A stretch of 56,298 nt of DNA from Candidatus Omnitrophota bacterium (GTDB lineage Bacteria > Omnitrophota > Gorgyraeia > Gygaellales > Profunditerraquicolaceae): contig QNCD01000002.1 of NCBI GenBank assembly GCA_003644385.1, forward strand, positions 1 to 56,298, read 5' to 3'. Position numbers and translations under genes: made by a program. Below are positions 6,595-54,804 of the stretch, one piece after another. How positions within the stretch are numbered: position 1 is the first letter of the stretch; the number at the start of each line of letters is the position of its first letter. Under the pieces are notes generated by a model. The model was not told the origin of the DNA, searched no databases, and was given only the letters and a program-made list of their open reading frames with translations.

Positions 6595-7116
6595 TTATTT
6601 CTTCCTTATAACTTTATTATCGAAAGTTATCACTACCTTTGGCTTTCTCTTTCTCGTGCCTCTGACACAGTAATACTTTTCACAAATGTCACAGAATAGA
6701 TTTCTTCTCTTTCTTGTGTGGGCAATATAATAGAATATCCTGCCCTTTTCAAAACAATATGGACAGAAATAGTACCATCTCTCTCGTGATATGTAGCGAT
6801 TGTCTTTCAGCCCCACTCTCTTCGCAATTTCCCGAAAATGCTTGCAATGATGAATCCTGCATTGAGCATGCTGAGGTATTTTTTCTACAGCAAAGTGAAT
6901 TAATTCATGTAGGATAGTGTTTCTGATTTCGCTTCGGGAAGCTTTATTAACATAGTCCCTGCTTAACTCTATTTTCTTGTTATCCCAAAGGAATGCCCGC
7001 CCATTGTAGCTCTTCAATCGGCCATTGAGAACAATTGGAACAAATTCCAGCTGAGGAAAATGTTTATCAATTAATCGCCTTTCGATTTTCTCAAGTTCCT
7101 TCAGACTATATTGCAT
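6595..7116 (-). CDS. SprT-like zinc metallopeptidase domain protein with C-terminal zinc ribbon
   Basis: The HExxH motif sits in NTILHELIHFAV, preceded by NGRLKSYNGRAF as in SprT-like domains. C-terminal CPYC ... CDIC pairs are present. Confidence 0.65.
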   Translation of the reverse strand: MQYSLKELEKIERRLIDKHFPQLEFVPIVLNGRLKSYNGRAFLWDNKKIELSRDYVNKASRSEIRNTILHELIHFAVEKIPQHAQCRIHHCKHFREIAKRVGLKDNRYISRERWYYFCPYCFEKGRIFYYIAHTRKRRNLFCDICEKYYCVRGTRKRKPKVVITFDNKVIRKK

Positions 7117-7900: not shown

Positions 7901-8815
7901 TTAACTAATTACACTGTTCAATAATAGAGCATATTTCCTAAATGGGCGGGCTTTTTTCAATGTATTTTTAATCAACTCTGAGGAAGCTTTACCTGGATCT
8001 CCATATTCCAAAAAAGCGACAAAGAGCTTTGTCTCATCAAGGTAAGAATATAGCTTTTTAGCCAATACAATACTTTCAACTTTAGCATCACTGTCTAACA
8101 TAATAACAATTTTTTTCAGCTTCTTCTGACTGATTTTCTTAGCCTGATAATTGCTGATATCTTTGCCAAATATACAGATACCTTCATCTCCCACTTTCAT
8201 CGCATCAAATACTCCTTCAGTTATTATCGCTCTACCAATTTTAGCAGCCCTATCCAGATTAAAAACAAAATGAGACTTGCCATAAATATAACTTTTAGGT
8301 GGGTTCAAATATTTAGGTTCTTGTCCTCTAAATGTGCGAGCTTGATAATATACTAACTTCTTCCCTTCAAAAACAGGAACAATTATTCTGCCAGCATACC
8401 ATCCACTGGTGCAATAACCTAACTTGTATTTCTCAATGTACTCTTTGGTAATTCCCCTTGATCTCAAATATTCTAAAGCTTCTTTACCCGCTTTAGTAGC
8501 AGAAAAATCAAAATTTGTCCCATTTGGGTATGATATAGCTGTTTTAATTGTCCCAGTAATAGTTTTATATCTATTTGTTAATTTGAACAAATTCTCCGGC
8601 TTGACATGCTGTGACTTTTTTATATTCAGCAGTCTGTATAACTGGGATTTATTGCACTTAAATCCACACCTGTGGCAATAACCTAAACCACTCAATCTAT
8701 TCAGATAAAAATGCTGTTCTTTACCACACTTTGGACATTTTAAAATAAATTCACTATTATCGCCATTTAATCTAACTTCATCAAAATTCTCCCTTATAAC
8801 TTGTTCAAGATTCAT
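7901..8815 (-). CDS. DNA primase (zinc-finger + TOPRIM)
   Basis: Zinc finger CPKCG-x18-CHRCG. TOPRIM motifs ITEGVFDA (ExxxD region) and MLDSDA (DxD). Confidence 0.8.
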   Translation of the reverse strand: MNLEQVIRENFDEVRLNGDNSEFILKCPKCGKEQHFYLNRLSGLGYCHRCGFKCNKSQLYRLLNIKKSQHVKPENLFKLTNRYKTITGTIKTAISYPNGTNFDFSATKAGKEALEYLRSRGITKEYIEKYKLGYCTSGWYAGRIIVPVFEGKKLVYYQARTFRGQEPKYLNPPKSYIYGKSHFVFNLDRAAKIGRAIITEGVFDAMKVGDEGICIFGKDISNYQAKKISQKKLKKIVIMLDSDAKVESIVLAKKLYSYLDETKLFVAFLEYGDPGKASSELIKNTLKKARPFRKYALLLNSVIS

Positions 8816-10106
8816 TGCTTCTCTCCCTTATCATCATTTTAGACCAATCAGCACTCACATTCACAGAACCATAGGAAGGATTGTGACGCTGATGTGCCAC
8901 AAAAATACGCATCTCACCTCTTTCTCTTTCCTCTTCAGTTTGACTCAGACTCAATACAATATCAGCTGAAGCCAACTTCGGGAAACTGTATGCTACATGT
9001 TCCAAATCCACTATGGATTTATTTTTAGCACTTCGTATGATTTGGCTGGCGGTCCAGACTGGTATTTTTCTTTTTACTGCTAAACCTCTTAGTTCAGCAT
9101 ATATTTGTTTTTGCTCTTGCCAATCAGCTTCATAATATCTACTACTCTTCAACTCGTCAGCATAATCCACAATAATTAAATCTGGCACAAAGTCACTGCC
9201 ACTCAGCATCTCTAAATGAGATTCTAAAGTTGCTACTGTGGCTGACTTGGTGGGATATTGTTTGATTATTAAATCACCTTTGAATAATTGGCAAATCCAC
9301 TTTAGCCTTTCAGCAACTTCTTTAGAATATTCAGATAAATTGCCAGTTCCATAACCACTGAGTGCACTGTCAAGCCTAATAGCTATATGACTCTCACTCA
9401 TTTCTAAAGTATAATAAACAACTTTCTTACCCTGGAAAATTGCACCTCTGGTCAACCAGATTAAGAATGCAGTTTTACCTCTACCTTTGAACCCTAATAC
9501 TACTCCTAATTCACCAGGTCCCAAACCTCCTCCAATTTTATCGTCCAGTCCTTTTATCATTGTTCTGATGCGTCCTGTGACTTCTGATTCGTGATTAGTT
9601 AGTCTTTTTTCAGGATTATCAAAATACTTGATACCAATATGTTCAAGGTTCTCTCCTACTCTAATTGCATCTCTTACCAGCTGTTCAATTTGCTCATATT
9701 TATCCTGCTCTAATAGTTTAGCTGATTCTAAAATGGCAGACTTCATAGCTTGATGTTTAGCAAATTTGATTAACAATTCACAAGTATATTTACTCTCTAC
9801 ATTATAATTGATGCTATAAATCTTGTCAATCTCTTTCTCATAAACTTCAAGGTCTAATTGTAAATCCTTATTAGCAACCTCTTCTTTTAACATTTCTGGC
9901 GTTGGTAATTGTCCATAACTATCAGTTAGATTCAAGATTAGCTTGCACAAATCTGAATGAACAATTTTTTCAAAATACTCTGGCTTTAGCACTTCTCTAA
10001 ATTGATAAATAAAATCTTTATTCCTTGCCATCATCGCCAATAAGTTTTCCTGAAAGTGTATGTTAAAATCGTATTTTGCACTCATTATTTCAGCTGTTCT
10101 AACCAA
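8805..10106 (-). CDS. DnaB-like replicative DNA helicase
   Basis: The N-terminal region resembles a DnaB N-domain. Walker A is GFKGRGKTAF and Walker B is LIIVDYADE. A RecA-like C-terminal core is present. Confidence 0.8.
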   Translation of the reverse strand: MVRTAEIMSAKYDFNIHFQENLLAMMARNKDFIYQFREVLKPEYFEKIVHSDLCKLILNLTDSYGQLPTPEMLKEEVANKDLQLDLEVYEKEIDKIYSINYNVESKYTCELLIKFAKHQAMKSAILESAKLLEQDKYEQIEQLVRDAIRVGENLEHIGIKYFDNPEKRLTNHESEVTGRIRTMIKGLDDKIGGGLGPGELGVVLGFKGRGKTAFLIWLTRGAIFQGKKVVYYTLEMSESHIAIRLDSALSGYGTGNLSEYSKEVAERLKWICQLFKGDLIIKQYPTKSATVATLESHLEMLSGSDFVPDLIIVDYADELKSSRYYEADWQEQKQIYAELRGLAVKRKIPVWTASQIIRSAKNKSIVDLEHVAYSFPKLASADIVLSLSQTEEERERGEMRIFVAHQRHNPSYGSVNVSADWSKMMIRERSNES

Positions 10107-14598: not shown

Positions 14599-15924
14599 CT
14601 ATTCCTCCATTATTTTTTCTATAAATCGAAATGACATAGCTTTTCGCTCATCAATGTAATTAAGTATGGTTTTATACATATTGACTTTTTTGAAACCTTT
14701 AATCATTGCCATTACTTTAGCGTGAAACAATTTACAGACCGTAGGAATCGGAGAAAACATATCTCCAGTCACTTCCAACATTGAGCCCAAACATTGTGCT
14801 TGGCATAAATATTTAATAGCACACACCTCACACTGAGGCTGAGAATAATAATGAAAAGTTTTAGTGCCAATTAATAGTTCAGGATTTACTGCTTCAATTC
14901 CAACGATTCTATTATTGTCCACTATGAATTTAGCTAATGTATTCTGTGGGTAGCTGATACGATGACAAGGAACAATTGCTAAATCTCCCATTCTGATATA
15001 AAGACAGGACTGGAGTGAACAGCCTATTCCTCTTCCAGTATTAGTCAATGGAGCTGATAGAATATTATAGCCTTTAAGGGTGAACAAAAATTTCATAAAT
15101 TTCTTCGGATCACTTTTGCAAGGGTGTTTGAAAGTCCATTCAATTAAGAACTCAATAAATTTCATATATTCTTTAATCTGCCAGTCTGTCCATTCTACAT
15201 TTCTAACTTCTAACAAATAAATATTAAAAAAAGGCAAATCATATTTCCTGAAATATGATTGAAACCATAAAAAGTTATCTATCCAATTTTCAATCAGCTC
15301 AGAATATATCATCGGGTGGAAACCAAATTTATGTTTTACAGCAAATTTGAAGCACTTATCATAGTATTCGTCGTCTCTATTATCAATGCCAATTTTTAAC
15401 GGTCGATTTCTTTCACAATATTTTCCATCAAAGCTTGCACTTAAAGCTAATCTAATTCCAATCTTTTTACTTTTTTCAATCAGCCTTTCTACTTTTTCAG
15501 TTAGTTTATCATTTAGAATAAAAGTAAAATTCGTTGGAACGCAAATCATCATTGGCTTCTTCTCAGCACTTGCGAACTTATCAAGAATTAAATCTAAAGC
15601 ATCAAAACCAAGCTTCTGCACAAAAGGTTCTCCGCTGAAAAAATCTATCTTTGGAGCCATCCCATTCTCGATCCACCAATTGCACAGCAATTCTAAATTC
15701 TGCATAATTCTATCATAGTTGATAATCTTTGAAGGATATAGTTGCTCACCAAAGTGAGTATGATAACAATATTTGCACTTTAAGTTGCACTTTGAAGATA
15801 AATAAATTTCAGCCCTTGAAAAATTCTGTAAGTTTATATTTGTAGGTTCTTTCCATGCCTTGAAATATGTGCTTTCAAGAAATGAACTTACCAATTGATT
15901 ATTTTCTTGCTGAAATGTTAACAT
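14599..15924 (-). CDS. radical SAM / SPASM domain enzyme
   Basis: CNLKCKYC (CxxxCxxC, nt 15766-15789), FFSGEP SAM-binding-like motif, and the exact SPASM motif CX2CX5CX3C = CEVCAIKYLCQAQC (nt 14791-14832). Confidence 0.85.
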   Translation of the reverse strand: MLTFQQENNQLVSSFLESTYFKAWKEPTNINLQNFSRAEIYLSSKCNLKCKYCYHTHFGEQLYPSKIINYDRIMQNLELLCNWWIENGMAPKIDFFSGEPFVQKLGFDALDLILDKFASAEKKPMMICVPTNFTFILNDKLTEKVERLIEKSKKIGIRLALSASFDGKYCERNRPLKIGIDNRDDEYYDKCFKFAVKHKFGFHPMIYSELIENWIDNFLWFQSYFRKYDLPFFNIYLLEVRNVEWTDWQIKEYMKFIEFLIEWTFKHPCKSDPKKFMKFLFTLKGYNILSAPLTNTGRGIGCSLQSCLYIRMGDLAIVPCHRISYPQNTLAKFIVDNNRIVGIEAVNPELLIGTKTFHYYSQPQCEVCAIKYLCQAQCLGSMLEVTGDMFSPIPTVCKLFHAKVMAMIKGFKKVNMYKTILNYIDERKAMSFRFIEKIMEE

Positions 15925-17230
15925 CTTTCAGAATCTCCTGAAATGCACCATTTGCAAATAACCTAATCATGCTGACTGGAGTAAAATGGATGCAGCCCGT
16001 ATTTAACAAATTCTCAGTTGGACAAGAACATGCAGTATTGATGAACAAAGAAAATAGGATGCACAAATCATTATTAGTTAAGTATACCTTATCAGCCTGA
16101 CCACAGAGTGCGAGTTCTTTCAGCATTGCAACCACATAACTATTCTTCAATTTAGTGAAATCATGATAATTTCTCAATATATACTTCCATCGTAAAGTAT
16201 TATGTGGATCATCGACATTCACAATATATCTATTTCGGATAAAATCAATTTTCTTACCTTCAAACAGAGAGACGTCCCAATTGTCAATATCTTTTTGTGT
16301 GAGAATACTGTTCAGATATTCATCACAATTTAGATAAAATGTTCTGTGACAAATATGCAGGTCATCATCTATTCCCACACCAGAATTACTATCACCACCT
16401 GAACAGGTAAACATGGCAGGATTTACATTTAGCCTGTCCCAGTGGTCAAATACCTTTTTAAATCTGAAACAGTAAGTATTTGGATATTTCATTTCACGCA
16501 GATTTTTGAAGAATGTAGCCAATTGCTTCCCGTCTTCACTTGTGTATTTTCCTGGAACAACTAAAGTTGGTGAACAAGTGTTTCTGAAACTGACTTGTCT
16601 TTGCTTGTTAATTGCTTTGAATCGAGCCTGCATATCTTTAAAGTATTCAAAATACTGCTTGATTTTGTTTTTATCCTTATTCAATAATCTAATATTTTCT
16701 TTCGAGAAAGTTGATTTCACTTTAAACTCAACAGTTAGTTCATTCAAACTAACTGCATTCAACTCTTTTAATAGAGAGCAAAAGTTAGAAAGTATTTTCT
16801 CACTTGCGCCTTTCATACGGTTTTTATCAGTAATAAAGCTTGGACCATCTACAGAAATTTGGATCTTAAGTTTCAGTTTTTTATTGGTATTGGATAGCTG
16901 CTTAACAAAGTCGACTAATATGTTTGTATTGGTAAGCAAGTTTGTCGAAAAACTAATTTCTTTCAAGTTGGGAAAACTCTGAAGACATCCAATTATGAAA
17001 TCCGTAGATTGCAGCAATGATAGAGTTGGCTCAGTACCCCAAAGTCCAAGGTATTCCAAATTACTTCTATAAATTGTAGCAAGGTTTCCAAAGTAATAAT
17101 CTTTTCTCAGTTTTGTGACAATCTTGTTGTGGAGCTTAACCATTTCTTTACTTTTTGGTATATAACAATATTTGCAGTTCAAATTGCAGTAACCTGAAGT
17201 CAAAACTTCTACAGCTTTCATTCTGTCCAT
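15899..17230 (-). CDS. radical SAM enzyme with Cys-rich C-terminal (twitch/SPASM-like) region
   Basis: CNLNCKYC (nt 17165-17188), LWGTEPTL glycine-rich SAM motif, and C-terminal cysteines in FTCSGGD...HICH and ACSCPTENLLNTGC. Confidence 0.8.
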   Translation of the reverse strand: MDRMKAVEVLTSGYCNLNCKYCYIPKSKEMVKLHNKIVTKLRKDYYFGNLATIYRSNLEYLGLWGTEPTLSLLQSTDFIIGCLQSFPNLKEISFSTNLLTNTNILVDFVKQLSNTNKKLKLKIQISVDGPSFITDKNRMKGASEKILSNFCSLLKELNAVSLNELTVEFKVKSTFSKENIRLLNKDKNKIKQYFEYFKDMQARFKAINKQRQVSFRNTCSPTLVVPGKYTSEDGKQLATFFKNLREMKYPNTYCFRFKKVFDHWDRLNVNPAMFTCSGGDSNSGVGIDDDLHICHRTFYLNCDEYLNSILTQKDIDNWDVSLFEGKKIDFIRNRYIVNVDDPHNTLRWKYILRNYHDFTKLKNSYVVAMLKELALCGQADKVYLTNNDLCILFSLFINTACSCPTENLLNTGCIHFTPVSMIRLFANGAFQEILKDVNISARK

Positions 17231-40384: not shown

Positions 40385-42049
40385 TCAATCTGCGATATAA
40401 CTGACGCCATAAGGGCCGTCAAGAAAACAACTTGGTTTAAAACATTTATCACTCAAAGCCTCATAACCTACCAAACACCACTCTTTAGTCCTACCCCAAA
40501 CTCTTGGTATATCTTTTAAGTGAGCCAATGGCTCTCTTTCGTGACAAATTGAAACCATTAAATCAGTATTAACCACAAGCGATTTCCTATAAGCTTCGCA
40601 AGGTTTATGAACACCTTCCCTCAAAAAATGAGGCAGAGCAAAAACAAATTTGTCAAATGATTTCATGTAGTCAGGAGCACTGTTCATTATCTTTTCAAAT
40701 TTATCAATCTTCTCGCTCGTCCACTTACCCAATACTTTACCGCCAAAATAACTTCCACTTACCCCTGCTCTTATACAGAAAGTAATTCCTAATTTCTGGA
40801 CCAAATCAATTAAATATGGCAACTCATCAACTGTATCTGGATATACAGTAATACTAATTCCACATTTCCTTGGCCAAATAGTATTCACAATTCTGACAGT
40901 CTCAACCGCTTGCTGAAAAGTTCCCTTAACTCCTCTCAGCTCATCATGAACCTCTTCACTACCATCTATAGAAACCCTTACAACAAAATTGCCTCTTAAA
41001 TTATTAGCAATTGTTTCCCAAATTTTTCTCTGATTTTCAGGTAGAGTTCCATTCGTAATTATACCAATTTCAGCACCTTTCCATCTATCTGCACAGATAG
41101 CAATTAAATCTACAATTTTATGGAATAAGGTTGGCTCTCCCCCAAAAATTGCAATATTATTTATATTATTAAAAAATTCATGTGAGATCCACTTCTGAAA
41201 TTCATGTATATTAATTTCTTCTTCCGATTGTTTTTTCCATATATCACAATGCTTACACATTAAATTACACCTCCAAGTAGCAGCGACAGCCATCCAAAAT
41301 GGAGTAATAACATCCAATCTTCTATGATGAATCCATTTATCCTTAAACAAAGTCTTATTCTCAGCTTCATGTAGAAATCTACCTTCAGAAGCAAAACGAT
41401 GATGCAGTATTACAGCTTCTGCACAATAATAAATTCTAAAGCCTGCTTCCCTTGCCCTTAAACAAAAATCTACATCTTCCCAACCATTAATAAATTCTTC
41501 ACAGAAACCACCAAGCCTTTCAAATACATCTTTTTTCACCAGCATACAAGCCGCAGTCACAGCCTCAGCTTCTCTGCTTTTATTACAACTATAATCATCT
41601 GCCGGTCTTCCCTGACCATACTCATAAGGATATCCAGAAGCTGCCATGAACTTAATTCCTGCATGCTGTATATATTTACCATCAATTGTCAGCAATTTGG
41701 CACCAACTATTGGAGATCTGAAATAATTATCCTCAGCTATTTTCAGCATATATTCCAAAAATCCCTTTTGTGGCTCTGTATCATTATTAAGAAATAGTAC
41801 ATATTCAGCTTCTAAACTCTTAGCACCTCTATTACAGCTTTTAGCAAAACCAACATTTGCTTCATTCCTAACATAATTAATTCCTGAATGTCTTTCTGCC
41901 CATTTATCAGTGCCATCTATAGAGCCATCATCTACCAAAGTTAATTTCCAATTTATCTTATTCGATATATTCTCTTTTAAACATCTCCATAAAGGATCTA
42001 AAAACTTCTTGCCATTATAAGTTGGCACAACAATATTTACTTTATACAT
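40385..42049 (-). CDS. family 2 glycosyltransferase fused to a radical SAM domain
   Basis: N-terminal VNIVVPTYNG ... LVDDGSIDGT ... NNDT ... GWEDVDFC (GT-A). C-terminal half has CNLMCKHC (CxxxCxxC, nt 41246-41269), IFGGEPTL and ITNGTL radical SAM motifs, plus C-terminal cysteines. Confidence 0.8.
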   Translation of the reverse strand: MYKVNIVVPTYNGKKFLDPLWRCLKENISNKINWKLTLVDDGSIDGTDKWAERHSGINYVRNEANVGFAKSCNRGAKSLEAEYVLFLNNDTEPQKGFLEYMLKIAEDNYFRSPIVGAKLLTIDGKYIQHAGIKFMAASGYPYEYGQGRPADDYSCNKSREAEAVTAACMLVKKDVFERLGGFCEEFINGWEDVDFCLRAREAGFRIYYCAEAVILHHRFASEGRFLHEAENKTLFKDKWIHHRRLDVITPFWMAVAATWRCNLMCKHCDIWKKQSEEEINIHEFQKWISHEFFNNINNIAIFGGEPTLFHKIVDLIAICADRWKGAEIGIITNGTLPENQRKIWETIANNLRGNFVVRVSIDGSEEVHDELRGVKGTFQQAVETVRIVNTIWPRKCGISITVYPDTVDELPYLIDLVQKLGITFCIRAGVSGSYFGGKVLGKWTSEKIDKFEKIMNSAPDYMKSFDKFVFALPHFLREGVHKPCEAYRKSLVVNTDLMVSICHEREPLAHLKDIPRVWGRTKEWCLVGYEALSDKCFKPSCFLDGPYGVSYIAD

Positions 42050-42666
42050 ATAACAGCCTCCAACTGTGCTCTTCTCTTATTTCCAGAAGCAAAAGCATTA
42101 TCCTGCAATTTAAATTCAATAATTTCTTTATCAGCAAATACTTCTCTAAATATCTTCCTCCACCAATTGATATTATAACAACTCACATGTGTAGGATCTT
42201 GTGGTTCATTAGGAAAATGTTTAGCTATACTTCCATAATTCTTATCAAATACTGTAATACCATGATATATATATTTATCACTCACTCTCCTACACTCAAT
42301 CAGACACCTTAATATCTCTTCAGATTTTAAGTGTTCCAAAAAATCCCAAGAAAATACTAAATCAAAATAACAATCCTCAAATATCCCCAGCTCAGTTGCA
42401 TCTCCTTGCATAATATATTTTTTCATTTCAGGATGACAATTAGCTACAGCATATTCAGATATATCAACCCCATATGCCTCAACTCCAATCATTCTCATCG
42501 CTTGAACCAAAAAACCTTTTGCACATCCTAATTCTAAAAATTTGAATATCTTAAATCTTCTTATTAATTGTTTAGCTATCTCAATATAACCATCATGCCA
42601 ATAATACAAACCATAGCCCTTCCTATTATCATATTTAGGATCTTTATAAGCTCTGGGATCTCGCAT
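42037..42666 (-). CDS. class I SAM-dependent methyltransferase
   Basis: Motif I LELGCAKGFLV, acidic loop GVDIS, and FSWDFLEHL. The true N terminus is uncertain (see the finding at 42681..42755). Confidence 0.75.
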   Translation of the reverse strand: MRDPRAYKDPKYDNRKGYGLYYWHDGYIEIAKQLIRRFKIFKFLELGCAKGFLVQAMRMIGVEAYGVDISEYAVANCHPEMKKYIMQGDATELGIFEDCYFDLVFSWDFLEHLKSEEILRCLIECRRVSDKYIYHGITVFDKNYGSIAKHFPNEPQDPTHVSCYNINWWRKIFREVFADKEIIEFKLQDNAFASGNKRRAQLEAVICIK

Positions 42667-42777
42667 TCCATCAAAATAGTTTATATCAATCCAATTAGAT
42701 AAATCCTCAGGTCTCTCTCTGCTCTTTCTGGATTACCTGGAATGAATACTGGCATAAACTACTCCTTTTTATGAATT

Positions 42778-43317
42778 TTATGAATTACTATTTATAAATT
42801 TTTTAGTTTTATCTTTTAAAACTTCCCAATATCCATCAATCATGCTTCTAAATTTCCTTACTATATCCTCTTCTGTTTCTCCACCCAGAGGTGTAATATT
42901 ACCTAATTCAATATCAGCAACAACTAATTCAGAACCCGCATCAGGATTGCCACTATTATCAAAACCTTTATAGATCTGAATTCCATGTTTATTACCAACC
43001 TTAGAAGACAGAATCACTCTCCTCACAAGCTCTGGTAGCTCTCTTTGCTGAGAATAAGTCTGACAATAAACTCCAATAGTAAAATTAAATCTCGCTAATC
43101 TTGATTCTGTGCCTTCATAATCAGGCTGAACATTCACATCATGTTCTTCTAAGTAAGAATGAATAAGAATGAAAGGTAATGCTAAATCTGAAAGATTTAA
43201 ATCAGGATGACTGATATAAATTCTATCATCAAAATCACTTTCCAAATCTGCTGAGCTTCTTAAGAAGTATACCAAACTATTATAAAAAGCTTCTCCAAGG
43301 TTATTGACTAAAGACAT
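42778..43317 (-). CDS. hypothetical structural protein (possible tail terminator/neck protein) stranded between sugar genes
   Basis: 179 aa with no enzyme motif. The ALPFILIHSY... layout is faintly reminiscent of DUF3168-type tail-completion proteins. Expected position between the gp10-like protein and the tube. Confidence 0.3.
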   Translation of the reverse strand: MSLVNNLGEAFYNSLVYFLRSSADLESDFDDRIYISHPDLNLSDLALPFILIHSYLEEHDVNVQPDYEGTESRLARFNFTIGVYCQTYSQQRELPELVRRVILSSKVGNKHGIQIYKGFDNSGNPDAGSELVVADIELGNITPLGGETEEDIVRKFRSMIDGYWEVLKDKTKKFINSNS

Positions 43318-44056
43318 CTTTAATTCCCTGTTTTTTACTATTGTTTAATCTTATTTTTCTTTCATAAAAATGCTGACTACTCTTAAAAAGGGAAATAAAA
43401 GTCCCCGCATCGCTCCAGAATCCATCAAGTATTCTATATGTTAAACGGTGATGAACAAGGTAGTACCGATTAGTATCAGTAATTTCTAACTCTCCTCTAT
43501 CTGAATATTCTTGGCTTCTAATTACATCAAAAACTTCACAATCATATAGATAGAAACCTGTTACCGCTAAGTCACTGATAAACTTCTTAGGTTTTTCAAT
43601 AATCCTCATTACTTTGCTATCTCTAATTTCAGCTACTCCAAATCTCTGGGGATCGCTAACTTTCTTCAGAAAAATCTTAGCCCCTCCAGTAAAATCAAGA
43701 ACATCAGACTTGAAATCCTCTTCAAAAATATTATCTCCCAAAATTACTGCAACATTATCATTCTGAACAAAACCTTCAGCTAACAATAGTGCCTCAGCAA
43801 TTCCTCCCGCTTGGTCTTGGACTTTATAAGTAAACTCTACTCCAAAGTCTTTTCCGCTTCCCAAAGTCTGGATAACTGCTCCCATATGTTCCCTGCCAGT
43901 AACAATCAGAATTTCTCTAATCCCTGAATTAATTAAAGTTTCCAGAGGATAGAATATCATTGGTTTATTGAACACTGGTAGAAGATGTTTATTCGTTACC
44001 TTAGTGCAAGGATAAAGCCTCGTTCCTTTACCACCTGCAAGCAATACTCCTTTCAT
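43301..44056 (-). CDS. rmlA: glucose-1-phosphate thymidylyltransferase-like sugar nucleotidyltransferase
   Basis: MKGVLLAGGKGTRLYPCT, ILGDNIF, EKPK and GFWSDAGT blocks of RmlA-type enzymes (short form). Confidence 0.8.
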   Translation of the reverse strand: MKGVLLAGGKGTRLYPCTKVTNKHLLPVFNKPMIFYPLETLINSGIREILIVTGREHMGAVIQTLGSGKDFGVEFTYKVQDQAGGIAEALLLAEGFVQNDNVAVILGDNIFEEDFKSDVLDFTGGAKIFLKKVSDPQRFGVAEIRDSKVMRIIEKPKKFISDLAVTGFYLYDCEVFDVIRSQEYSDRGELEITDTNRYYLVHHRLTYRILDGFWSDAGTFISLFKSSQHFYERKIRLNNSKKQGIKDVFSQ

Positions 44057-45051
44057 TTATCATCCTCTCTAAGTTTTAATTTCTTCCACCACCACTCATT
44101 ATTAATATACCAATTAATGGTTTTATTCAAATTTGTTTCTAAATTATCTTTTATTTCAAAACCTAATTCAGTAATTTTTTTACAATCAACTGCATATCTC
44201 CTATCATGCCCAGGTCTATCAGGAACAAATTCTATAAAGTACTCATAGTCAAGCGCCATATTCTCAATTATAAACTTGATTAATTCATAGTTAGTCACAT
44301 CATCATATAAAGAGCCTATATTATATATTTCTCCAAATTTCCCTTCGTGAAGAAGAAGGTCTATAGCTTTACAATTATCTTCTACAAATATCCAGTTTCG
44401 TATTTGGTCTCCTTTCCCATAGATAGGCACTTTTTTATTTTCGAGTAAATTTGTTATTGCGAGAGGAATTAGCTTCTCAGGATACTGATAAGGTCCAAAG
44501 TTATTAGTACTCCTGCTGATAATATATTTAAGTCCATAAGTTCTTCCGTAAGCTTGTACTAACAAATCCGCTCCTGCTTTACTTGCTGAATAAGGAGAAG
44601 AAGGCTTTAAAAGGGAATTTTCGTCCGCAAACCCATCAAGCACTTCTCCATATACTTCATCTGTACTAATCTGAAAAAACTTACAATCATGCTGAACTGC
44701 ATAGTCAAGAAGTTTCTGCACTCCTAAATAATTGCTTTTTATAAAAGGGGAAGAATCTCTTATACTTCTGTCAACATGACTTTCAGCAGCAAAGTTGACT
44801 ATCCAATCAGGAGGATCCAAAGGGAAATCCTGGATATCACATATGTCCATTTTAATAAAAATATAATTAGGATTATTTTCAATATCCTTCAAATTATCAG
44901 GATTGCCTGAGTAGGTGAGTTTATCTAAATTGTAAACTTTATAGGTAGGATAGCTTTTAAGAATATGACGGATAAAATTAGACCCAATAAACCCACATCC
45001 CCCAGTAATTAATAATTTTACACTCAAATCTACCTCCTTTTCAATTACCAC
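44053..45051 (-). CDS. rmlB: dTDP-glucose 4,6-dehydratase
   Basis: LLITGGCGFIGSNFIRHIL, NLDKLTYSGN, STDEVYG, YSASKAGADLLV and GHDRRYA match conserved RmlB blocks. Confidence 0.85.
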   Translation of the reverse strand: MVIEKEVDLSVKLLITGGCGFIGSNFIRHILKSYPTYKVYNLDKLTYSGNPDNLKDIENNPNYIFIKMDICDIQDFPLDPPDWIVNFAAESHVDRSIRDSSPFIKSNYLGVQKLLDYAVQHDCKFFQISTDEVYGEVLDGFADENSLLKPSSPYSASKAGADLLVQAYGRTYGLKYIISRSTNNFGPYQYPEKLIPLAITNLLENKKVPIYGKGDQIRNWIFVEDNCKAIDLLLHEGKFGEIYNIGSLYDDVTNYELIKFIIENMALDYEYFIEFVPDRPGHDRRYAVDCKKITELGFEIKDNLETNLNKTINWYINNEWWWKKLKLREDDK

Positions 45052-48703: not shown

Positions 48704-49657
48704 TTAATATTCTGTCCTGACCCATTTATCTGGTTCCAAAATATCAGCATCAAATCTTGCCTTAGCTCTGGCATTTTCTGTGTCTCGTAATAAATCTTGC
48801 CATTGCTTAATCTGTAGCATTAATCTCCTTAAAAATACACAGCCTCCTCCGGTCTTCGCTTTCCCGATGTAATAATAATCAGAATCCACATACGGAGAGC
48901 ATATAATATTCAGCACATTCTGAAATACATTAGTTCCACCAGCTGCTACAGTCCCACCAATATTAGCAGTTACAGTTAGAGAAGTATTAATTAATTCCCT
49001 GGCCTGATACAAATGAGTAGGATCAACAATTATCACATCAGGAGCAATAGGATCTCTCTCAGTTCTTCCTCCTGCTGTTACAGTTCTGTTCATCAAGGTT
49101 GCAATAGCCGATTCGAGAGCCGCTGCATTCAATCCAGTATTAGTATTCTGATTCATCGAAGCTCCCCGAGTAGTAAAAGCCCCAAAAGCTATTTCATCTT
49201 CTTTCTGTTTAAACCTGTGACCAACTACCCTTAAACACCACCCCATAACATCAACTTCTGCATCTTCCAGCATCTCCTCAGTGAAACCCAGCAAACACTC
49301 AAATTTCCTTGGCTTCATAGTTGCTTCACCAGACACAGGTCCAGTAAAGTGTTTCTCCTGTCCGCTAATCGCCTCATAAACATGAATGCCTTTCAGTCCT
49401 GGAAAATCAATCTCCTTACCTTTAGTCATTGTGACCAAATCAAAAACCTGAGGCCACAATGCCACATGCTCCATATAACCATCCAGCAATTTCGTATTAA
49501 AAGCTGTCCTTAATAACTCTGGCATCTCTGAAGTTGTACGAGCTTCCTTCAGCAGTTTTCTAATCACTCTTTGCTGAGCTTCTGTCCAACCTGAAGTTTG
49601 AACCGCTGTTTCTCTTAAGTCTTGCACACTAATCAACTCTGTATCGTTATTTTTCAT
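48704..49657 (-). CDS. major capsid protein (HK97-fold expected)
   Basis: 317-aa ORF directly after the protease/scaffold and DUF2190-like genes and followed by a hairpin terminator. Called on composition and position; no signature verified. Confidence 0.65.
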   Translation of the reverse strand: MKNNDTELISVQDLRETAVQTSGWTEAQQRVIRKLLKEARTTSEMPELLRTAFNTKLLDGYMEHVALWPQVFDLVTMTKGKEIDFPGLKGIHVYEAISGQEKHFTGPVSGEATMKPRKFECLLGFTEEMLEDAEVDVMGWCLRVVGHRFKQKEDEIAFGAFTTRGASMNQNTNTGLNAAALESAIATLMNRTVTAGGRTERDPIAPDVIIVDPTHLYQARELINTSLTVTANIGGTVAAGGTNVFQNVLNIICSPYVDSDYYYIGKAKTGGGCVFLRRLMLQIKQWQDLLRDTENARAKARFDADILEPDKWVRTEY

Positions 49658-49692: not shown

Positions 49693-50160
49693 TTATAAGT
49701 ACGGATTAGCCTGGTTATAACAATATGGTGAACGCTTCTGAACTGGAGTAATAAATACCTCCACAATTTCACCACTCGCAGATCCTGGTGTTGAAGATTC
49801 TGCTACTCCTACTGAAATTTCTTGGTCTCTACCACCACCCAAATCAACTGTATTGCTCCCAGTAGCATACACATAATTTCCAGGTTTTATTGCCTGAGCA
49901 ACAGAAGTTGTAAATTCAAATACACCAGTCTGCCAAAGCAAAACTTCTTCTCCTTCAGCAGCTTTAGTCTCAGCCACACCTGCTATCCCTCCTCTACCAA
50001 ACAGTAACATAGGGTCAGCTGCAGGTCTTGCTTTACCTGCTCCGTCTAAATAGCACATATCTCCAGCTTCAATATCTGCCCCAGCTGTAAACTTACTCAA
50101 TATTCCTGCTCTCACATAGTTCTCTAATGAAGAATTATATGTCATTATTTTCCTGCTCAT
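49693..50160 (-). CDS. DUF2190-like head decoration/cement protein
   Basis: FTAGADIEAGDMCYLDGAGKARPA ... GIAGVAETKAAEGEEVLLWQTGVFEF matches the DUF2190 pattern. Located between scaffold and capsid. Confidence 0.55.
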   Translation of the reverse strand: MSRKIMTYNSSLENYVRAGILSKFTAGADIEAGDMCYLDGAGKARPAADPMLLFGRGGIAGVAETKAAEGEEVLLWQTGVFEFTTSVAQAIKPGNYVYATGSNTVDLGGGRDQEISVGVAESSTPGSASGEIVEVFITPVQKRSPYCYNQANPYL

Positions 50161-50194: not shown

Positions 50195-51814
50195 TTAATC
50201 CTCGTCTTCTTCATCATAAATTTTCTGTATATTCTCAGCCAAATTCCACAGTTTCTCATTACCTTCTTTTAAAATATCTGCTTCAGTTTTAGCTGTTGTC
50301 CTTGTCTTTCCTGCTGGAGGTTTACCATACACTAAAGTCTTCTTCTCTCTGGTAAGTGGAACCAACTCCTTAATATAGTCAAGCTCCGCTTTAAGTGACT
50401 CTTCTACTTCCTTTTCATTACTACCAACCACTCTCTTCCTCAATAACTCCTTAACCTTATCATCAACATCCAATTCCTCAATTTTCTTATTAATAAACTC
50501 TTCTAACTTTTTCTGCTCTATTTCTGCTTTTAATTTATCTCGTTCTTGCTCAGCAGCCACTAATTTAGTCTCCAGCTCTTTAATCTTCTCTTGTAATTTA
50601 TCAAATTCCTCTTGTAGCTTTTCTTTTTCAGTACTCAATTCCTCAACCTGTGCAGCTAAAGTCTCCTTAGCATCCTCAATCAGATCCTGAACTTCGCTCA
50701 TCTGGAGTAATTCCTCCTTTGTCATATTTTCAACACCTCCCTTGTTTTCATACACTTCTTTAACTTTTGCTCCTGGTATTGCTCCCTCTAACACGAGATC
50801 AATACCTTTTAAATGCATTTCTAATACTTTTTCTCTTTTATGACCATTGACTTTTTCAGTCATCAAACTACCTTCTGCCCTTATGGACAGCTCCTGTGAA
50901 CCAGGAGGTCTAAATTTCAGTAATTCTTGCGCATCCTTACCCAAAGATGTATTATTTAACTCAGCAACAAAAGTAACTTCCCCATTGTCATTTAAATCTA
51001 TCTCGACAGGTCTGCCAACAATCCTACTGGGATCATCACCTGTCGGATGACCCATCATAATTGTTAACTTTTCAATATTCTCTTTAGCCTCTTTAACCGC
51101 CGATTCTACTACTTCTCTCGGATAAAATCTGCCATTGGCACTTTCTGCATTTGCTTTTAAAGCTACCCCACTGAATCTGAATGGTTTTTCTTTATCTTCT
51201 TCTATCCAGTCTAAACTAATAACATTCTCTGTAATTTCTTGATTCTTGCGAATTGCGCCTTCTGATAACTTTGGAGTTCTTTTTGGAGGTTTACTTTCTT
51301 TAATCAATTCAGCTATTTTATTCAGCTCACTAATATTCATACTTTTCAGTTTAGCTATTGCTTCAGTAGTATTCTGGATGGCCAATTCCTTAGAAGCATA
51401 ATAACCATATTTGGGTGCTAATAGATTCCTAATCTGGGTTAACTTGGTTTGTGTCGCTTTGTCTTTTATTGTCTTAATTAACTTATCTAACAGACTGAGA
51501 GCTTTCTTAAACTGTTTGTTATATTTGCCATAATAACCATAGCCATAATAACCATAGCCATACTTGCCATAATCACCATATTTCCCATAATTACCATACT
51601 TCTTAGTTACTTTTTTAGCTTCATCAGAGCCTCTCATCATATTGCCACATTTTGGGCATTTTATTTGGACACAAGGAATCGACTTGCCCAACCCAATCTT
51701 TTTGTGAACAACCTTATAACCACATACTGGACAAACACAATATTTAGCTCCTCCATCTGCTTGAGGGTAACCTCCTACACCTTTACCATAGCCTCTTGCT
51801 TCTACAATGCCCAA
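50195..51814 (-). CDS. prohead protease / scaffold fusion with N-terminal zinc ribbon and Gly-Tyr-Lys low-complexity tract
   Basis: CVCPVCG...CPKCG (nt 51647-51739); KKYGNYGKYGDYGKYGYGYYGYGYYGKY (nt 51518-51601); a protease-like block FRFSGVALKANAESANGRFYPREVV...TIMMGHP; and an E/K-rich coiled-coil C-terminal third. Confidence 0.5.
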   Translation of the reverse strand: MGIVEARGYGKGVGGYPQADGGAKYCVCPVCGYKVVHKKIGLGKSIPCVQIKCPKCGNMMRGSDEAKKVTKKYGNYGKYGDYGKYGYGYYGYGYYGKYNKQFKKALSLLDKLIKTIKDKATQTKLTQIRNLLAPKYGYYASKELAIQNTTEAIAKLKSMNISELNKIAELIKESKPPKRTPKLSEGAIRKNQEITENVISLDWIEEDKEKPFRFSGVALKANAESANGRFYPREVVESAVKEAKENIEKLTIMMGHPTGDDPSRIVGRPVEIDLNDNGEVTFVAELNNTSLGKDAQELLKFRPPGSQELSIRAEGSLMTEKVNGHKREKVLEMHLKGIDLVLEGAIPGAKVKEVYENKGGVENMTKEELLQMSEVQDLIEDAKETLAAQVEELSTEKEKLQEEFDKLQEKIKELETKLVAAEQERDKLKAEIEQKKLEEFINKKIEELDVDDKVKELLRKRVVGSNEKEVEESLKAELDYIKELVPLTREKKTLVYGKPPAGKTRTTAKTEADILKEGNEKLWNLAENIQKIYDEEDED

Positions 51815-51854: not shown

Positions 51855-54665
51855 TCATTCATCCTTGAAAAAAGTTTGATCCTTAGGTCTTTTGGCTATC
51901 CAAATTCGCTTGCCGTCAGCAATTGGAGCATACATGAATAACCATCTACCTGACAAATTTTTGTTCCTTGTGAAATTGAACTCAAATTCTTTAATATGCT
52001 CTTCTTGTTTGTGAGCTTTCCAATCTATGAAATCTATTATTATCATTACTGCATATGACTTACTGAATGCGCCCACTTCTCCTGGTTCAAATATAGCTGG
52101 ACTTTTCTTACCAAAATCCAGCCATGACAAAGGTCCTCTAATTACTTCAGCCTCACCTTCACCTTTCCTGGGCTGTTTCCACATAAACCGTAAGCTGTCT
52201 CCAGGTTTATAATCTGCCAACTTATCAAGTCCTTTAATATTGCCGATTAGTATTTCTCCACCTTCCCAATAATTCATACCTGAAGGATGTAATCTTAAGT
52301 CTATGTGACAACCCGCTGAAATTAACGATTGCATTATATCTCTAAAAGGTTTAAGACCTTTTCTAACGGCTGCCATGATTCTTAACGAATTCCTCATAAT
52401 TTTTTTCACCCCATCCTCAGTTAAACCCATTATGTGTAGTTGAAGAACTCCATCACCTTTCATTCCTTTAGTAATAGTAATATTCCCTCTCTCTCCTGCT
52501 TCACCTTCCTTTTTTGCTTCAATGATAGCAAAACTTTCACTTGATGATATCAATTTACTTTTCTTCAGCTCATCCCTCACATCAGGACTAATCTGCAATA
52601 TACCTGCAGCATAAGCTCTCTTAATTATTTCTTCAGCTGTTTCTGGATTCTTTCTGGCTAATTCTATATCTCGAACTGCTGGCACAACTGCACCAATGAG
52701 CCAACGACCATCTTTGAATTTTGGTATAATTTCTTGTGCGGTTATGGTCAGTATATCGCCAGGATTTGCTTTCACAGTTGTGTTAAAAGTTTTACCCAAA
52801 GTCTCCAGCTTACCTTTAGACAAATACCCAACAGTATAATTGAACACATTAGTAGTACCTTTAACAGGATTCCTTTTTATTACTTGAACCTTGAATTCAA
52901 CTATTGTTTTAATTTTAGCCCAAGCAGGAGTCTGTCCAGTTAAGGGATATGTAGAATCAGTTACTTTACACACAGCCCCTTCTGAACCCTCAACTTTACT
53001 AACTTTTTGGATATCTTTTATCAAGTCTGCTTTATTATCAGAAATATTTTTAGGAGACAGCTTGAAAATCTTAAAGTCATATTTAGCAAAAATATTCTCC
53101 AATTGTTCTCTGCGAGTAGTCCAAGGTTCATTGTGCAAATCTTTATCATCATAATACAGACAGTCAAACACATGACACACTAAAGTTCCTTTCACTCCTG
53201 CTGGTGTTTCAAACTTGCGATAAACTTTATCCTTAGTAGTGCCCCAGTAAGCTAAGTCTTTCCTGGCTATAACTTTACCACCTGGACCAATAGCTCCTAA
53301 TTCAGCGTCCAATATAACTGGCTTGTCTATAACTTTCAAGTCTGCCACCAAGTCTGGAAATTGATTGCTTCTGTCTCTTTTAGAATCCTCAAAGTAAATT
53401 AAAGTGTTACCATTGTCCTTCTGCAAAACAGTTCTCCAACCGTTGTATTTAATCTCTGTGTCTATTTTCTTACCTCTCTTCAAGTAAGCATCAGCCCACT
53501 TATCAACAAAAGTTTTAATATCATAATATTCCTGCATAGTATATCCACTCGAGGTCTTAAGTGGAGTAAAAATCTGGAGAGGCTTGAGATTTTTACTTTC
53601 AAGCACTTCATCTATCCCAGAGTTCTTAACACATCTTAACTTACCAACCAAATACACAACATCCCACTCAGGATCGTCATATTCTTCCAACTTTTCTATT
53701 TCAAACTTGGGATATATGAAATGGCTCTTGCGCAAATTGTCTTCACAAAAAAATTGTATAGTAACCGCATTCCACAGGCTTTTGTGGGTAGGATTGCCGA
53801 ATGCTCCTTGTCCTTTAGTACTGGGAAATTCAAATTCAAAGATGCCTCCAGGTTTCAATACTCTCCAAATTTCCGACATAATGAAAAAATGGTTGCTCAA
53901 ATGTTCAAGTGAGTGTTTAGCCAGCACATAATCCACAGAATCATTGGGAAATGGTATGCCATGTTCCAAATCCCAATATAAGTCAGGATGTCCAGTAATA
54001 TCAATATTAACAAAACCAGGTAGCTTATTATCACCACAGCCTAAATTCAGCTTGATAACTTTTTTCTCCTCATTTCCATTCCTGTTTTCATTAACCTTAA
54101 CAATACCTTTGTCCTTAGCCCTTAACACCAAATCAAACAAAGGCACATAGTCATCATGAGGACCTTCTGGATTATATACCCAATGATAATCTTTATTCTG
54201 CCTGCCGAGAGTCTTAGCTATCAATACTTCTAAGCTTGGATCTCTGGGTGGTCTTCTGAACAATATGTCTATGTCTTCATAATTGTCTTTCTTGACACTG
54301 CTACCTATCTGGCACACAAAGTCAGGAATATATACTACATCTTTTTCGTTCTTTAACTTCAAGCTTTCTGTCACATCTGACAACTTCTTGCCAATTCTAT
54401 TCAATATTTTTTTTAATAGCTCTAAACTACTTTTCTTCATCTTGTCTGGGTGGAAAACTATTATCTTTCTCTTCAGCATTTCTCTCATTACTTTTTCAGC
54501 AAATTCAATCAAATCCTCAATTTTAGCAAATTCAGTCTTCCCACCTTTCTTCATCACGCTATACTTAGCACACAACAACCTCCAATCATCCCTCAATTGG
54601 TCATCTCTTACTTTACTCGCATCATAGCCTTTAACCTTGAATTCATTTATTTTTATTTTTATCAC
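51855..54665 (-). CDS. 936-aa multidomain protein: Pol-beta-type nucleotidyltransferase-like + class I SAM methyltransferase + ATP-dependent DNA/RNA ligase + LigD 3'-phosphoesterase-like domain
   Basis: GSSVKKDNYEDIDILF (nt 54258-54305); LNLGCGD...WRVLKPGG (MTase, ~53631-54059). Ligase motifs EIKYNGWR (I, Lys codon 53448-53450), ILDAELG (III), HVFDCLYYDDKDL...RREQL (IV), EGAVCK (V), WAKIK (VI region), plus an OB-like segment. HIDLRLH (nt 52287-52307) and FEPGEVGAF in the C-terminal ~200 aa. Apparent GTG start. Confidence 0.7.
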   Translation of the reverse strand: MIKIKINEFKVKGYDASKVRDDQLRDDWRLLCAKYSVMKKGGKTEFAKIEDLIEFAEKVMREMLKRKIIVFHPDKMKKSSLELLKKILNRIGKKLSDVTESLKLKNEKDVVYIPDFVCQIGSSVKKDNYEDIDILFRRPPRDPSLEVLIAKTLGRQNKDYHWVYNPEGPHDDYVPLFDLVLRAKDKGIVKVNENRNGNEEKKVIKLNLGCGDNKLPGFVNIDITGHPDLYWDLEHGIPFPNDSVDYVLAKHSLEHLSNHFFIMSEIWRVLKPGGIFEFEFPSTKGQGAFGNPTHKSLWNAVTIQFFCEDNLRKSHFIYPKFEIEKLEEYDDPEWDVVYLVGKLRCVKNSGIDEVLESKNLKPLQIFTPLKTSSGYTMQEYYDIKTFVDKWADAYLKRGKKIDTEIKYNGWRTVLQKDNGNTLIYFEDSKRDRSNQFPDLVADLKVIDKPVILDAELGAIGPGGKVIARKDLAYWGTTKDKVYRKFETPAGVKGTLVCHVFDCLYYDDKDLHNEPWTTRREQLENIFAKYDFKIFKLSPKNISDNKADLIKDIQKVSKVEGSEGAVCKVTDSTYPLTGQTPAWAKIKTIVEFKVQVIKRNPVKGTTNVFNYTVGYLSKGKLETLGKTFNTTVKANPGDILTITAQEIIPKFKDGRWLIGAVVPAVRDIELARKNPETAEEIIKRAYAAGILQISPDVRDELKKSKLISSSESFAIIEAKKEGEAGERGNITITKGMKGDGVLQLHIMGLTEDGVKKIMRNSLRIMAAVRKGLKPFRDIMQSLISAGCHIDLRLHPSGMNYWEGGEILIGNIKGLDKLADYKPGDSLRFMWKQPRKGEGEAEVIRGPLSWLDFGKKSPAIFEPGEVGAFSKSYAVMIIIDFIDWKAHKQEEHIKEFEFNFTRNKNLSGRWLFMYAPIADGKRIWIAKRPKDQTFFKDE

Positions 54666-54804
54666 CCCTCACAATAAACAATTTTAATTCCTCCAATTCT
54701 AAACAGAGCTTCTCCACTAAGTCACTAAAAGCCACACTCTCCTTTTTTAACCATTCTTTTAATTCATCAATTTTGTATTCAATTTCTTCTCTCAATCTGA
54801 CCAT
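54643..54804 (-). CDS. small coiled-coil ORF (53 aa), not in the supplied track
   Basis: Hand translation: MVRLREEIEYKIDELKEWLKKESVAFSDLVEKLCLELEELKLFIVRGDKNKNK. Its ATG overlaps the stop of 54792..55001 (ATGGTCAGATTGA) and its stop overlaps the first codons of the 936-aa gene. Confidence 0.3.
   Translation of the reverse strand: MVRLREEIEYKIDELKEWLKKESVAFSDLVEKLCLELEELKLFIVRGDKNKNK

Follow-up and report, generated by a model that had tools for sequence, protein, structure and literature searches.

A putative single-chain LigD-like DNA end-processing and sealing enzyme encoded in the head module of a tailed virus

The gene studied here lies on contig QNCD01000002.1, of which a stretch of 56,298 nucleotides (the window) was analyzed. 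The window is a 56.3-kb tailed-virus contig with 35% GC, in which all long open reading frames (ORFs) lie on the minus strand and the GC skew is uniformly negative. Upstream of its capsid genes, one ORF (51855..54665, minus strand, stop codon included) starts with GTG and encodes a protein of 936 residues, hereafter the enzyme, for which a role in DNA end processing and sealing is proposed. BLAST and iterated hidden Markov models were run against homologues and resolved five modules. Four of them had been named before; the fifth is the N-terminal helical module A.

54354..54665, minus strand, residues 1-104: module A, helical domain, Pyr_excise-like in homologues
54081..54353, minus strand, residues 105-195: module B, Pol-beta-superfamily minimal nucleotidyltransferase-like domain
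53550..54080, minus strand, residues 196-372: module C, class I S-adenosylmethionine (SAM) methyltransferase, Methyltransf_11
52908..53474, minus strand, residues 398-586: nucleotidyltransferase domain of module D (whole module, residues 373-712), ATP-dependent DNA ligase
52530..52907, minus strand, residues 587-712: C-terminal part of module D, a conserved segment in place of the ligase OB domain
51858..52529, minus strand, residues 713-936: module E, divergent LigD 3'-phosphoesterase fold

All of the motifs quoted in the original prediction were found in their places, with K406 as the motif I lysine of the ligase.

Residues 121-136, GSSVKKDNYEDIDILF: Pol-beta-type signature stretch
Residues 206-212 (LNLGCGD), 238-245 (PFPNDSVD) and 267-274 (WRVLKPGG): methyltransferase motifs
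Residues 404-411 (EIKYNGWR, with K406), 451-457 (ILDAELG) and 498-505 (HVFDCLYY): ligase motifs
Residues 562-567 (EGAVCK) and 581-586 (AWAKIK): further ligase motifs
Residues 741-744 (LQLH), 787-793 (HIDLRLH) and 859-867 (FEPGEVGAF): motifs of the C-terminal module

The gene model was also as first described, with a GTG start, 936 residues and an overlapping 53-residue ORF. The latter (54643..54804, minus strand) overlaps the GTG start by 23 nt. The enzyme frame has a TGA two codons before the GTG, and homologue alignments start at about residue 5, with several homologues beginning at the equivalent residue; the start is therefore right to within a few codons. Before the GTG there is only a GAGGG, which closely abuts it. 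The overlap of the two ORFs (54640-54670, minus strand) spans an A-rich stretch, GATAAAAATAAAAATAAATGA. Translational coupling of the 53-residue ORF and the enzyme gene is likely, and no frameshift signal was recognized in this overlap. A merger of several genes by sequencing error was ruled out, because an identical 936-residue product is encoded in contigs of two or more independent samples (ERZ1742239 and SRR6823441). Moreover, the module order is repeated in dozens of diverged relatives. Read-through from the enzyme into the head maturation protease ORF that follows it was excluded, since by their coordinates the two ORFs are in different frames and 40 nt apart.

The ligase domain was identified by both family and structure databases. 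DNA_ligase_A_M (PF01068) matched residues 398-586 of the window protein (E=1.1e-21), its 77.9 bits lying above the cut-off of 26.2. In PDB, archaeal DNA ligases came out best, with E=8.6e-11 when the single sequence was searched and 7.5e-18 when the family profile was used. Motifs I (K406), III (DAE, 453-455), IIIa (FDCLYY), IV (EGAVCK) and V (AKIK) aligned to the ligase of P. furiosus. With the Pfam match above its cut-off and these motifs aligned, the ATP-dependent ligase with a KxNG motif I that had been read from this protein was borne out.

Likewise, the LigD-phosphoesterase likeness noted for the C-terminus was confirmed by profile and by predicted fold. The five best PDB matches of the module E family profile were all LigD phosphoesterases (3p43 at E=0.0027, 3p4h, 5dmp, 3n9b and 2lj6). 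PF13298 (LigD_N) was matched by 8 of 21 relatives, at best with 1.4e-6; the Pfam scan gave no PF13298 match for the window protein itself. The AlphaFold model of module E (pLDDT 92, pTM 0.88) retrieved 3n9b (E=9.4e-6), 3p43 (E=4.8e-5, TM 0.70) and 3n9d (E=5.1e-5) in Foldseek with probability 1.0, and no other match fell below E=0.1. In the family alignment H787, D789 and R791 were invariant, H744 was nearly so and W848 was conserved, and the H787-x-D789-x-R791 block aligned to HYDFR of 3p43. We take H744, H787, D789 and R791 to be the equivalents of His42, His48, Asp50 and Arg52 of Pseudomonas LigD. An insert of about 45 residues, predicted as three helices, separates the first His from the HxDxR block. 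As modeled, module E is a divergent LigD 3'-phosphoesterase.

Module B probably represents a Pol-beta-type nucleotidyltransferase, judging from its conserved residues. G121, D131 and D133 were invariant and S122 and D178 nearly invariant in the family alignment. The Pol-beta signature hG[GS]x(9-13)Dh[DE]h can be traced through G121-S122 and D131-I-D133, with D178 as third carboxylate; the spacer is 8 residues in the window protein and 9-11 in relatives. Single relatives matched NTP_transf_2 (1.5e-5 and 1.6e-6), Polbeta, DNA_pol_B_palm and DUF6932 in Pfam. In the PDB profile search, Pol beta and MNT antitoxins were among very few matches, with E of 0.1-0.5, and the predicted order of strands and helices was compatible with a Pol-beta nucleotidyltransferase.

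The preceding module A was predicted as a four-helix domain (pLDDT mostly above 85). Its link to T4 endoV comes from sub-threshold Pfam matches in relatives only: Pyr_excise (PF03013, the T4 endoV core) scored 17-22.8 bits (cut-off 23) in an alignment spanning positions 6-79 of its 81, and the window protein's own module A gave no direct match to it. With a T4 endoV sequence, hhalign returned a probability of 3%, and in a hand alignment the equivalent of the catalytic Glu23 was not conserved. Because this Glu is not conserved, module A is probably, with low confidence, a non-catalytic DNA-binding module.

Module C proved to be the complete class I methyltransferase that the original prediction had described: Methyltransf_11 matched the window protein with 37.7 bits against a cut-off of 21.2 (E=3.3e-9). 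L208-G-C-G211, D228 and D232, which are SAM-binding, were invariant, and an HxxEH at 251-255 was conserved. The family profile of module C listed 62 methyltransferases in PDB, of generic small-molecule or glycan-type class I, and Hen1 was not among these 62. Closest in sequence were methyltransferase modules joined to GT2 glycosyltransferases, and a "glycosyl transferase/methyltransferase" of a cyanophage. A second methyltransferase gene of the window (38-796, minus strand) belongs to the same PHROG (6636) as module C and is possibly its source or paralogue.

A profile of modules A and B retrieved 1,560 clusters at E<=1e-3 and 1,005 at E<=1e-10, counted as 50% identity representatives. Among 172 retrieved module-B proteins, a ligase was present in 125, a phosphoesterase-like module in 112 and a methyltransferase in 53. 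The commonest architecture was A-B-ligase-phosphoesterase (40 proteins), followed by A-B-methyltransferase-ligase-phosphoesterase (25). From these counts and architectures, the core of the family is nucleotidyltransferase plus ligase plus phosphoesterase. The methyltransferase, carried by only 53 of the 172, is an optional lineage-specific addition to that core. A Pfam scan for accessory domains covered 38 long family representatives and gave the following counts.

DNA_ligase_A_M: 36 of 38 long relatives
Peptidase_S78_2 (XkdF prohead protease): 25 of 38
Methyltransf_11: 12 of 38
UDG: 9 of 38
Lactamase_B_2 (metallo-beta-lactamase, Apyc1-like): 8 of 38
Dam-type N6-adenine DNA methyltransferase: 3 of 38
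Acb1: 2 of 38
Peptidase_S78: 1 of 38

The same scan found no kinase, RNA ligase or RtcB in the 38 long relatives. A prohead protease was fused to the enzyme in 26 of them, and one Thermococcus-binned relative carries Mu-like_Pro, so that the protease fusions of relatives span three Pfam families (S78_2, S78 and Mu-like_Pro). The Dam, Acb1 and Apyc1-like modules show that proteins of this family are also carriers of counter-defence functions.

On L001, the contig of the closest relative, an Apyc1-like metallo-beta-lactamase (anti-Pycsar family match) is a separate gene (8150-9655) directly upstream of the enzyme, and in the relatives P0003 and P0026 such a domain is fused to the enzyme N-terminus. 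Acb1 (anti-CBASS) modules occur in two more distant relatives. L005, which also carries a family member, encodes at 567-1424 the classical polyvalent pair ArdC-N plus MPTase-PolyVal, on the opposite strand and beside the portal gene.

No full-length relative was found among GenBank phages. A scan of genome contigs with the single enzyme protein found nothing; the alignment-based scan found seven contigs of metagenome-assembled genomes with relatives. Their bins were Bathyarchaeia, Pacearchaeota, Methanosarcinales, Synergistaceae, Thermogutta, Desulfobacterales and Aminicenantes, which suggests a family of anoxic-sediment or subsurface viruses of both domains, binning being weak host evidence. 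A further member without methyltransferase is AJP62006.1 of the ANMV-1 virus (KP703175), which is annotated as 'ATP-dependent DNA ligase'. On the ANMV-1 contig (L006, 3200-5800) this ligase holds nucleotidyltransferase-like and phosphoesterase-like modules that are not annotated, plus a second, partial phosphoesterase-like repeat at its C-terminus.

Downstream of the enzyme gene, the head genes follow in the order maturation protease, cement/decoration protein and major capsid protein.

50195..51814, minus strand: head maturation protease/scaffold of 539 residues (phrog_207, E=4e-11; phrog_3270, 1.6e-10)
49693..50160, minus strand: head cement/decoration protein
48704..49657, minus strand: major capsid protein, Mu gpT / HK97-like

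Terminase and portal are missing from the window because only 1.6 kb of contig lies upstream of the enzyme gene. In all seven related contigs compared (L001-L005, L007 and L008), terminase and portal genes, in some cases with MuF, come before the enzyme gene, and the genes for protease/scaffold and capsid come after it. The placement in the head module that had been proposed for the enzyme was thus upheld, with protease, cement and capsid genes downstream in the window and portal/terminase directly upstream in relatives. On L007 the fused S78_2 domain is the sole protease annotated in the head module. The earlier suggestion of encapsidation has likewise gained comparative support: since the synteny holds in 7 of 7 contigs and protease fusions recur with three different Pfam families, the comparative support for encapsidation is strong, and the enzyme is predicted to be a packaged protein.

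Taken together, we moderately favor the view that the gene encodes a single-chain LigD-like DNA end-processing and sealing enzyme, encoded in the head module of a tailed virus and delivered by the capsid. The enzyme would enter the procapsid alongside, or as part of, the maturation protease/scaffold, stay with the DNA and be released into the cell at infection. There the phosphoesterase module would clean blocked 3' ends (phosphate, ribonucleotide or similar), the Pol-beta-type module would add or fill nucleotides at the 3'-OH, and the ligase module would seal the break, while the helical module A would hold the DNA. Nicks, gaps or ends of the incoming genome may be the targets, with damage arising from extracellular accumulation, packaging or host nucleases. 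Alternatively, the enzyme could serve in genome circularization and in the protection of ends from exonucleases. The UDG inserts, present in a quarter of the long relatives, would extend the pathway to uracil excision. Between the two candidate substrates, DNA is better supported than RNA.

Some points weigh against this view. In the ligase, motif I reads K-Y-N-G-W-R and not the canonical KxDGxR, motif VI is degenerate (the region reads RDIELARK), and the OB segment is conserved, yet ligase profile alignments end at motif V or about 40 residues beyond. However, the third position of motif I is N, D, S, G or P across the family while K, EGxxxK and KxK are fixed, indicating that KxNG is a tolerated clade feature and not decay. 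On pre-adenylated DNA, LigIV can do without the Asp of motif I, and T4 Rnl2 has a His at this position (PMC6035275). Given that the lysine, EGxxxK and KxK are conserved in the family, that the motif III glutamate is kept and that the motif I Asp is variable, the ligase is likely active, as far as sequence conservation can tell. In module E the segment R-G844-P-L-S-W848 has Gly in place of the equivalent of LigD His84 and Trp in place of Tyr88, and a His equivalent to His84 is kept in a few relatives only, e.g. as THPLDW. The chemistry of module E may therefore differ from that of the LigD phosphoesterase. Module B, with about 90 residues, is too small for a complete templated polymerase. A model of modules A and B gave no significant Foldseek match in PDB or BFVD, a search that the two-domain model probably hurt. 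Of the original call of an N-terminal Pol-beta nucleotidyltransferase, the invariant carboxylates and the weak profile matches stand, and the fold was not confirmed by Foldseek.

Other points concern packaging and the idea of one pathway. No capsid-targeting or cleavage signal was recognized in the enzyme. A phmmer comparison of the 539-residue protease of the window with the C-termini of the fused relatives found no homology, so the adjacency of enzyme and protease is analogous to the fusions and does not reflect simple gene fission. A Ku homologue was not found in the scan, which covered about 40 of the window ORFs. The Acb1 and Apyc1-like modules of relatives also allow independent counter-defence effectors in place of one pathway.

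This last thought leads to the best placed of the alternatives, which we nevertheless regard as unlikely. The enzyme could be a polyvalent counter-defence protein with independent modules, its nucleotidyltransferase or methyltransferase, for example, modifying host proteins or signaling nucleotides and its ligase/phosphoesterase part being one tool among several delivered at infection. The addition of Acb1 (anti-CBASS), Apyc1-like metallo-beta-lactamase (anti-Pycsar) and Dam modules in relatives fits this idea, as does the fact that the nearest relatives of the methyltransferase lie in glycosyltransferase fusions. Pol-beta nucleotidyltransferases of polyvalent proteins have proteins as their predicted targets, according to Iyer et al. 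(2017; PMC5512222). On the other hand, the nucleotidyltransferase-ligase-phosphoesterase triad is an invariant core kept in fixed order through hundreds of diverged clusters, which argues for a functional unit. Nucleotide addition, 3' trimming and sealing form a logic that is established for LigD.

Ranked next, and rather improbable, is an ordinary intracellular ligase of replication or repair that stays outside the capsid and is encoded in the head module on account of late co-expression only. Many phages encode ATP-dependent ligases for replication, the ANMV-1 member has a MutT-like hydrolase as its neighbor and no obvious head module around it, and no packaging signal was identified in the enzyme. 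Against this stand the position of the gene between portal and protease/capsid in all seven related contigs, the covalent fusion to a prohead protease in 26 of the 38 long relatives and the use of three different protease families in such fusions.

The original prediction had favored an enzyme that heals, seals and immunizes nucleic acid, here taken as RNA repair in the manner of Pnkp/Hen1. According to this scheme, the phosphoesterase would remove the 2',3'-cyclic or 3'-phosphate ends that anticodon nucleases leave on tRNA, the ligase would reseal the RNA and the methyltransferase would 2'-O-methylate the junction. Healing, sealing and methyl-transfer modules do occur within one chain, and 3'-ribonucleotide and 3'-phosphate ends are substrates of LigD-type phosphoesterases. 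Phosphodiesterase modules of the 2H (Acb1) or metallo-beta-lactamase kind are present in some relatives, and a HAD/NT5C protein of the window is labeled 'polynucleotide kinase' by PHROGs. Some RNA ligases typically lack the Asp of motif I (PMC6035275). However, the ligase matched DNA ligases only, no 5'-kinase domain was present in the window protein or the 38 long relatives, and Pfam reads the supposed kinase as a dUTPase plus 5'-nucleotidase. The methyltransferase profile led to generic small-molecule enzymes and to no Hen1, and about 69% of the family has no methyltransferase at all. The recurrent accessory modules are DNA-directed (the DNA-specific UDG and Dam) or anti-signaling (Acb1 and metallo-beta-lactamase), and module A resembles a pyrimidine-dimer glycosylase core. 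The RNA scheme was therefore not sustained; we place it third among the alternatives and consider it improbable.

Finally, an mRNA capping-type apparatus, composed of guanylyltransferase, cap methyltransferase, beta-barrel triphosphatase and poly(A)-polymerase-like nucleotidyltransferase, is very hard to credit: capping enzymes and ligases have the covalent nucleotidyltransferase fold and its motifs in common, vaccinia D1 was among the weak Foldseek matches of the module E model (E~0.1) and a weak Pox_polyA_pol match was seen (E=0.39), but the significant matches were all DNA ligases with no mRNA_cap_enzyme among them, the C-terminus was matched to the LigD phosphoesterase at probability 1.0 vs 0.06 for D1, and no RNA polymerase was evident in the window.

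The remaining features of the window were also recorded. No tRNAs and no terminal repeat were found in it; with no such repeat, the contig was judged neither circular nor terminally redundant, and it is an incomplete genome. In the 539-residue protease, a four-cysteine Zn-ribbon at the N-terminus is followed by an unusual low-complexity run of K, G and Y, KYGNYGKYGDYGKYGYGYYGYGYYGKY, and the C-terminal part is a long coiled coil. A ribbon rich in Cys also comes directly before the protease domain in those relatives of the enzyme that are fused to a protease. Within the structural region lies a sugar-modification cluster (40385-45051 and 14599-17230, both minus strand); one of its genes resembles GDP-mannose dehydratases/epimerases, and another joins a GT2 glycosyltransferase to a radical-SAM domain. 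The window has two more radical-SAM ORFs at other places, and similar genes were seen on L001, L002 and L004. These genes hint at glycosylation of the virion or the DNA. In the replication region, genes for a SprT-like metalloprotease and a DUF932 protein were found (6595-7116 and 4631-5578, minus strand), the SprT-like gene directly downstream of a DnaG-type primase, which itself comes after DnaB-like and UvsW-like helicases. The HAD/NT5C protein mentioned above (1626-2549, minus strand) is a dUTPase_2/MazG-like domain fused to an NT5C/HAD 5'-deoxynucleotidase, and the PHROGs label 'polynucleotide kinase' for its HAD part was unsupported by Pfam.

Beyond the single enzyme, a broader picture can be put forward tentatively. 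Many tailed viruses of anoxic-sediment and subsurface bacteria and archaea might load their capsids with a first-aid kit for the genome. Just as tentatively, this kit might consist of a ligase (possibly pre-adenylylated), a phosphoesterase that cleans 3' ends, a minimal Pol-beta-type nucleotidyltransferase and often a UDG, all tethered to the prohead protease. If this is true, damage from long extracellular persistence or from host nucleases would be repaired on entry, conceivably even inside the particle, and a virion-borne DNA repair analogous to LigD would have evolved independently of the cellular enzyme of non-homologous end joining. Such a kit would also be a testable explanation of how viruses could outlast long dormancy and defences that nick or cut. 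Since the family is large, occurs in bacterial and archaeal bins and has no entry among cultured phages, it may represent a common viral function that has so far been overlooked. The compact ligase, phosphoesterase and nucleotidyltransferase modules, some of them probably thermostable, could serve as reagents.

Among known systems, LigD is the closest functional analogue. Both combine in one chain an ATP-dependent ligase, a 3'-phosphoesterase of the same fold and, probably so in the enzyme, a nucleotide-adding module, and the metal- and phosphate-binding His-His-Asp-Arg residues of the phosphoesterase are conserved in the enzyme. In contrast to LigD, whose nucleotide-adding module is an archaeo-eukaryotic primase-type POL domain, that of the enzyme is probably a Pol-beta-type module, of about 90 residues. 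Its phosphoesterase has a helical insert of about 45 residues and no His84 equivalent. It is a viral, head-module protein, often fused to a prohead protease, with an extra methyltransferase and an N-terminal helical module. The enzyme scored 66 bits against the TIGR02776 equivalog cut-off of 373, no primase-polymerase domain was found in it, and no Ku was found among the roughly 40 window ORFs scanned; for these reasons it falls outside the LigD family. The LigD-like trio, rebuilt with a different nucleotidyltransferase, would amount to nature's own experiment in convergent design.

In concept, the enzyme comes closest to the polyvalent proteins (Iyer et al. 2017; PMC5512222). Like them, it is large, unites several catalytic domains, has its gene next to those for portal/MuF and head proteins and is predicted to travel with the DNA, and its relatives add the anti-defence modules Dam, Acb1 and metallo-beta-lactamase. 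Unlike them, it has no MuF, portal or zincin module, and its anchor is apparently the prohead protease. Neither a core of DNA ligase and LigD phosphoesterase nor anchoring to a protease appears to be reported in that survey, in which the word 'ligase' is used only three times, one of these passages being about ATP-grasp RNA ligases (PMC5512222). By term search, the combination is also not described in a jumbo-phage survey of the same group.

The ANMV-1 protein AJP62006.1 shares with the enzyme a nucleotidyltransferase-like module (E=3e-21 to the module B profile), the ligase and a phosphoesterase-like module (E=7.5e-27). It differs in having no methyltransferase, no detected module A, a second partial phosphoesterase-like repeat and a MutT-like hydrolase encoded upstream, and in being annotated for the ligase alone. 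The Pnkp/Hen1 and T4 Pnkp/Rnl1 systems share the idea of end healing and sealing, with a methyltransferase in the same system; the enzyme has a ligase of another family, no kinase, no specific Hen1 likeness and DNA-directed accessories.

Other viruses, too, depend on joining the ends of their incoming genome or on repairing it. In mycobacteriophages Omega and Corndog, phage Ku and host LigD circularize the genome, and African swine fever virus (ASFV) and poxviruses package base-excision repair enzymes in the virion. Here, on the other hand, the virus itself would carry ligase, phosphoesterase and nucleotidyltransferase in one chain, apparently in the capsid. Transcription enzymes, ADP-ribosyltransferases and anti-restriction proteins are known cargo of phage particles, and T4 Alt and the internal proteins are packaged effectors. 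No description of a packaged ligase-based DNA end-repair enzyme of bacterial or archaeal viruses was found in the literature searched, an absence that is likely, not certain. The enzyme families are thus familiar, and the trio of nucleotidyltransferase, ligase and phosphoesterase likely constitutes an undescribed viral family that is capsid-linked and widespread.

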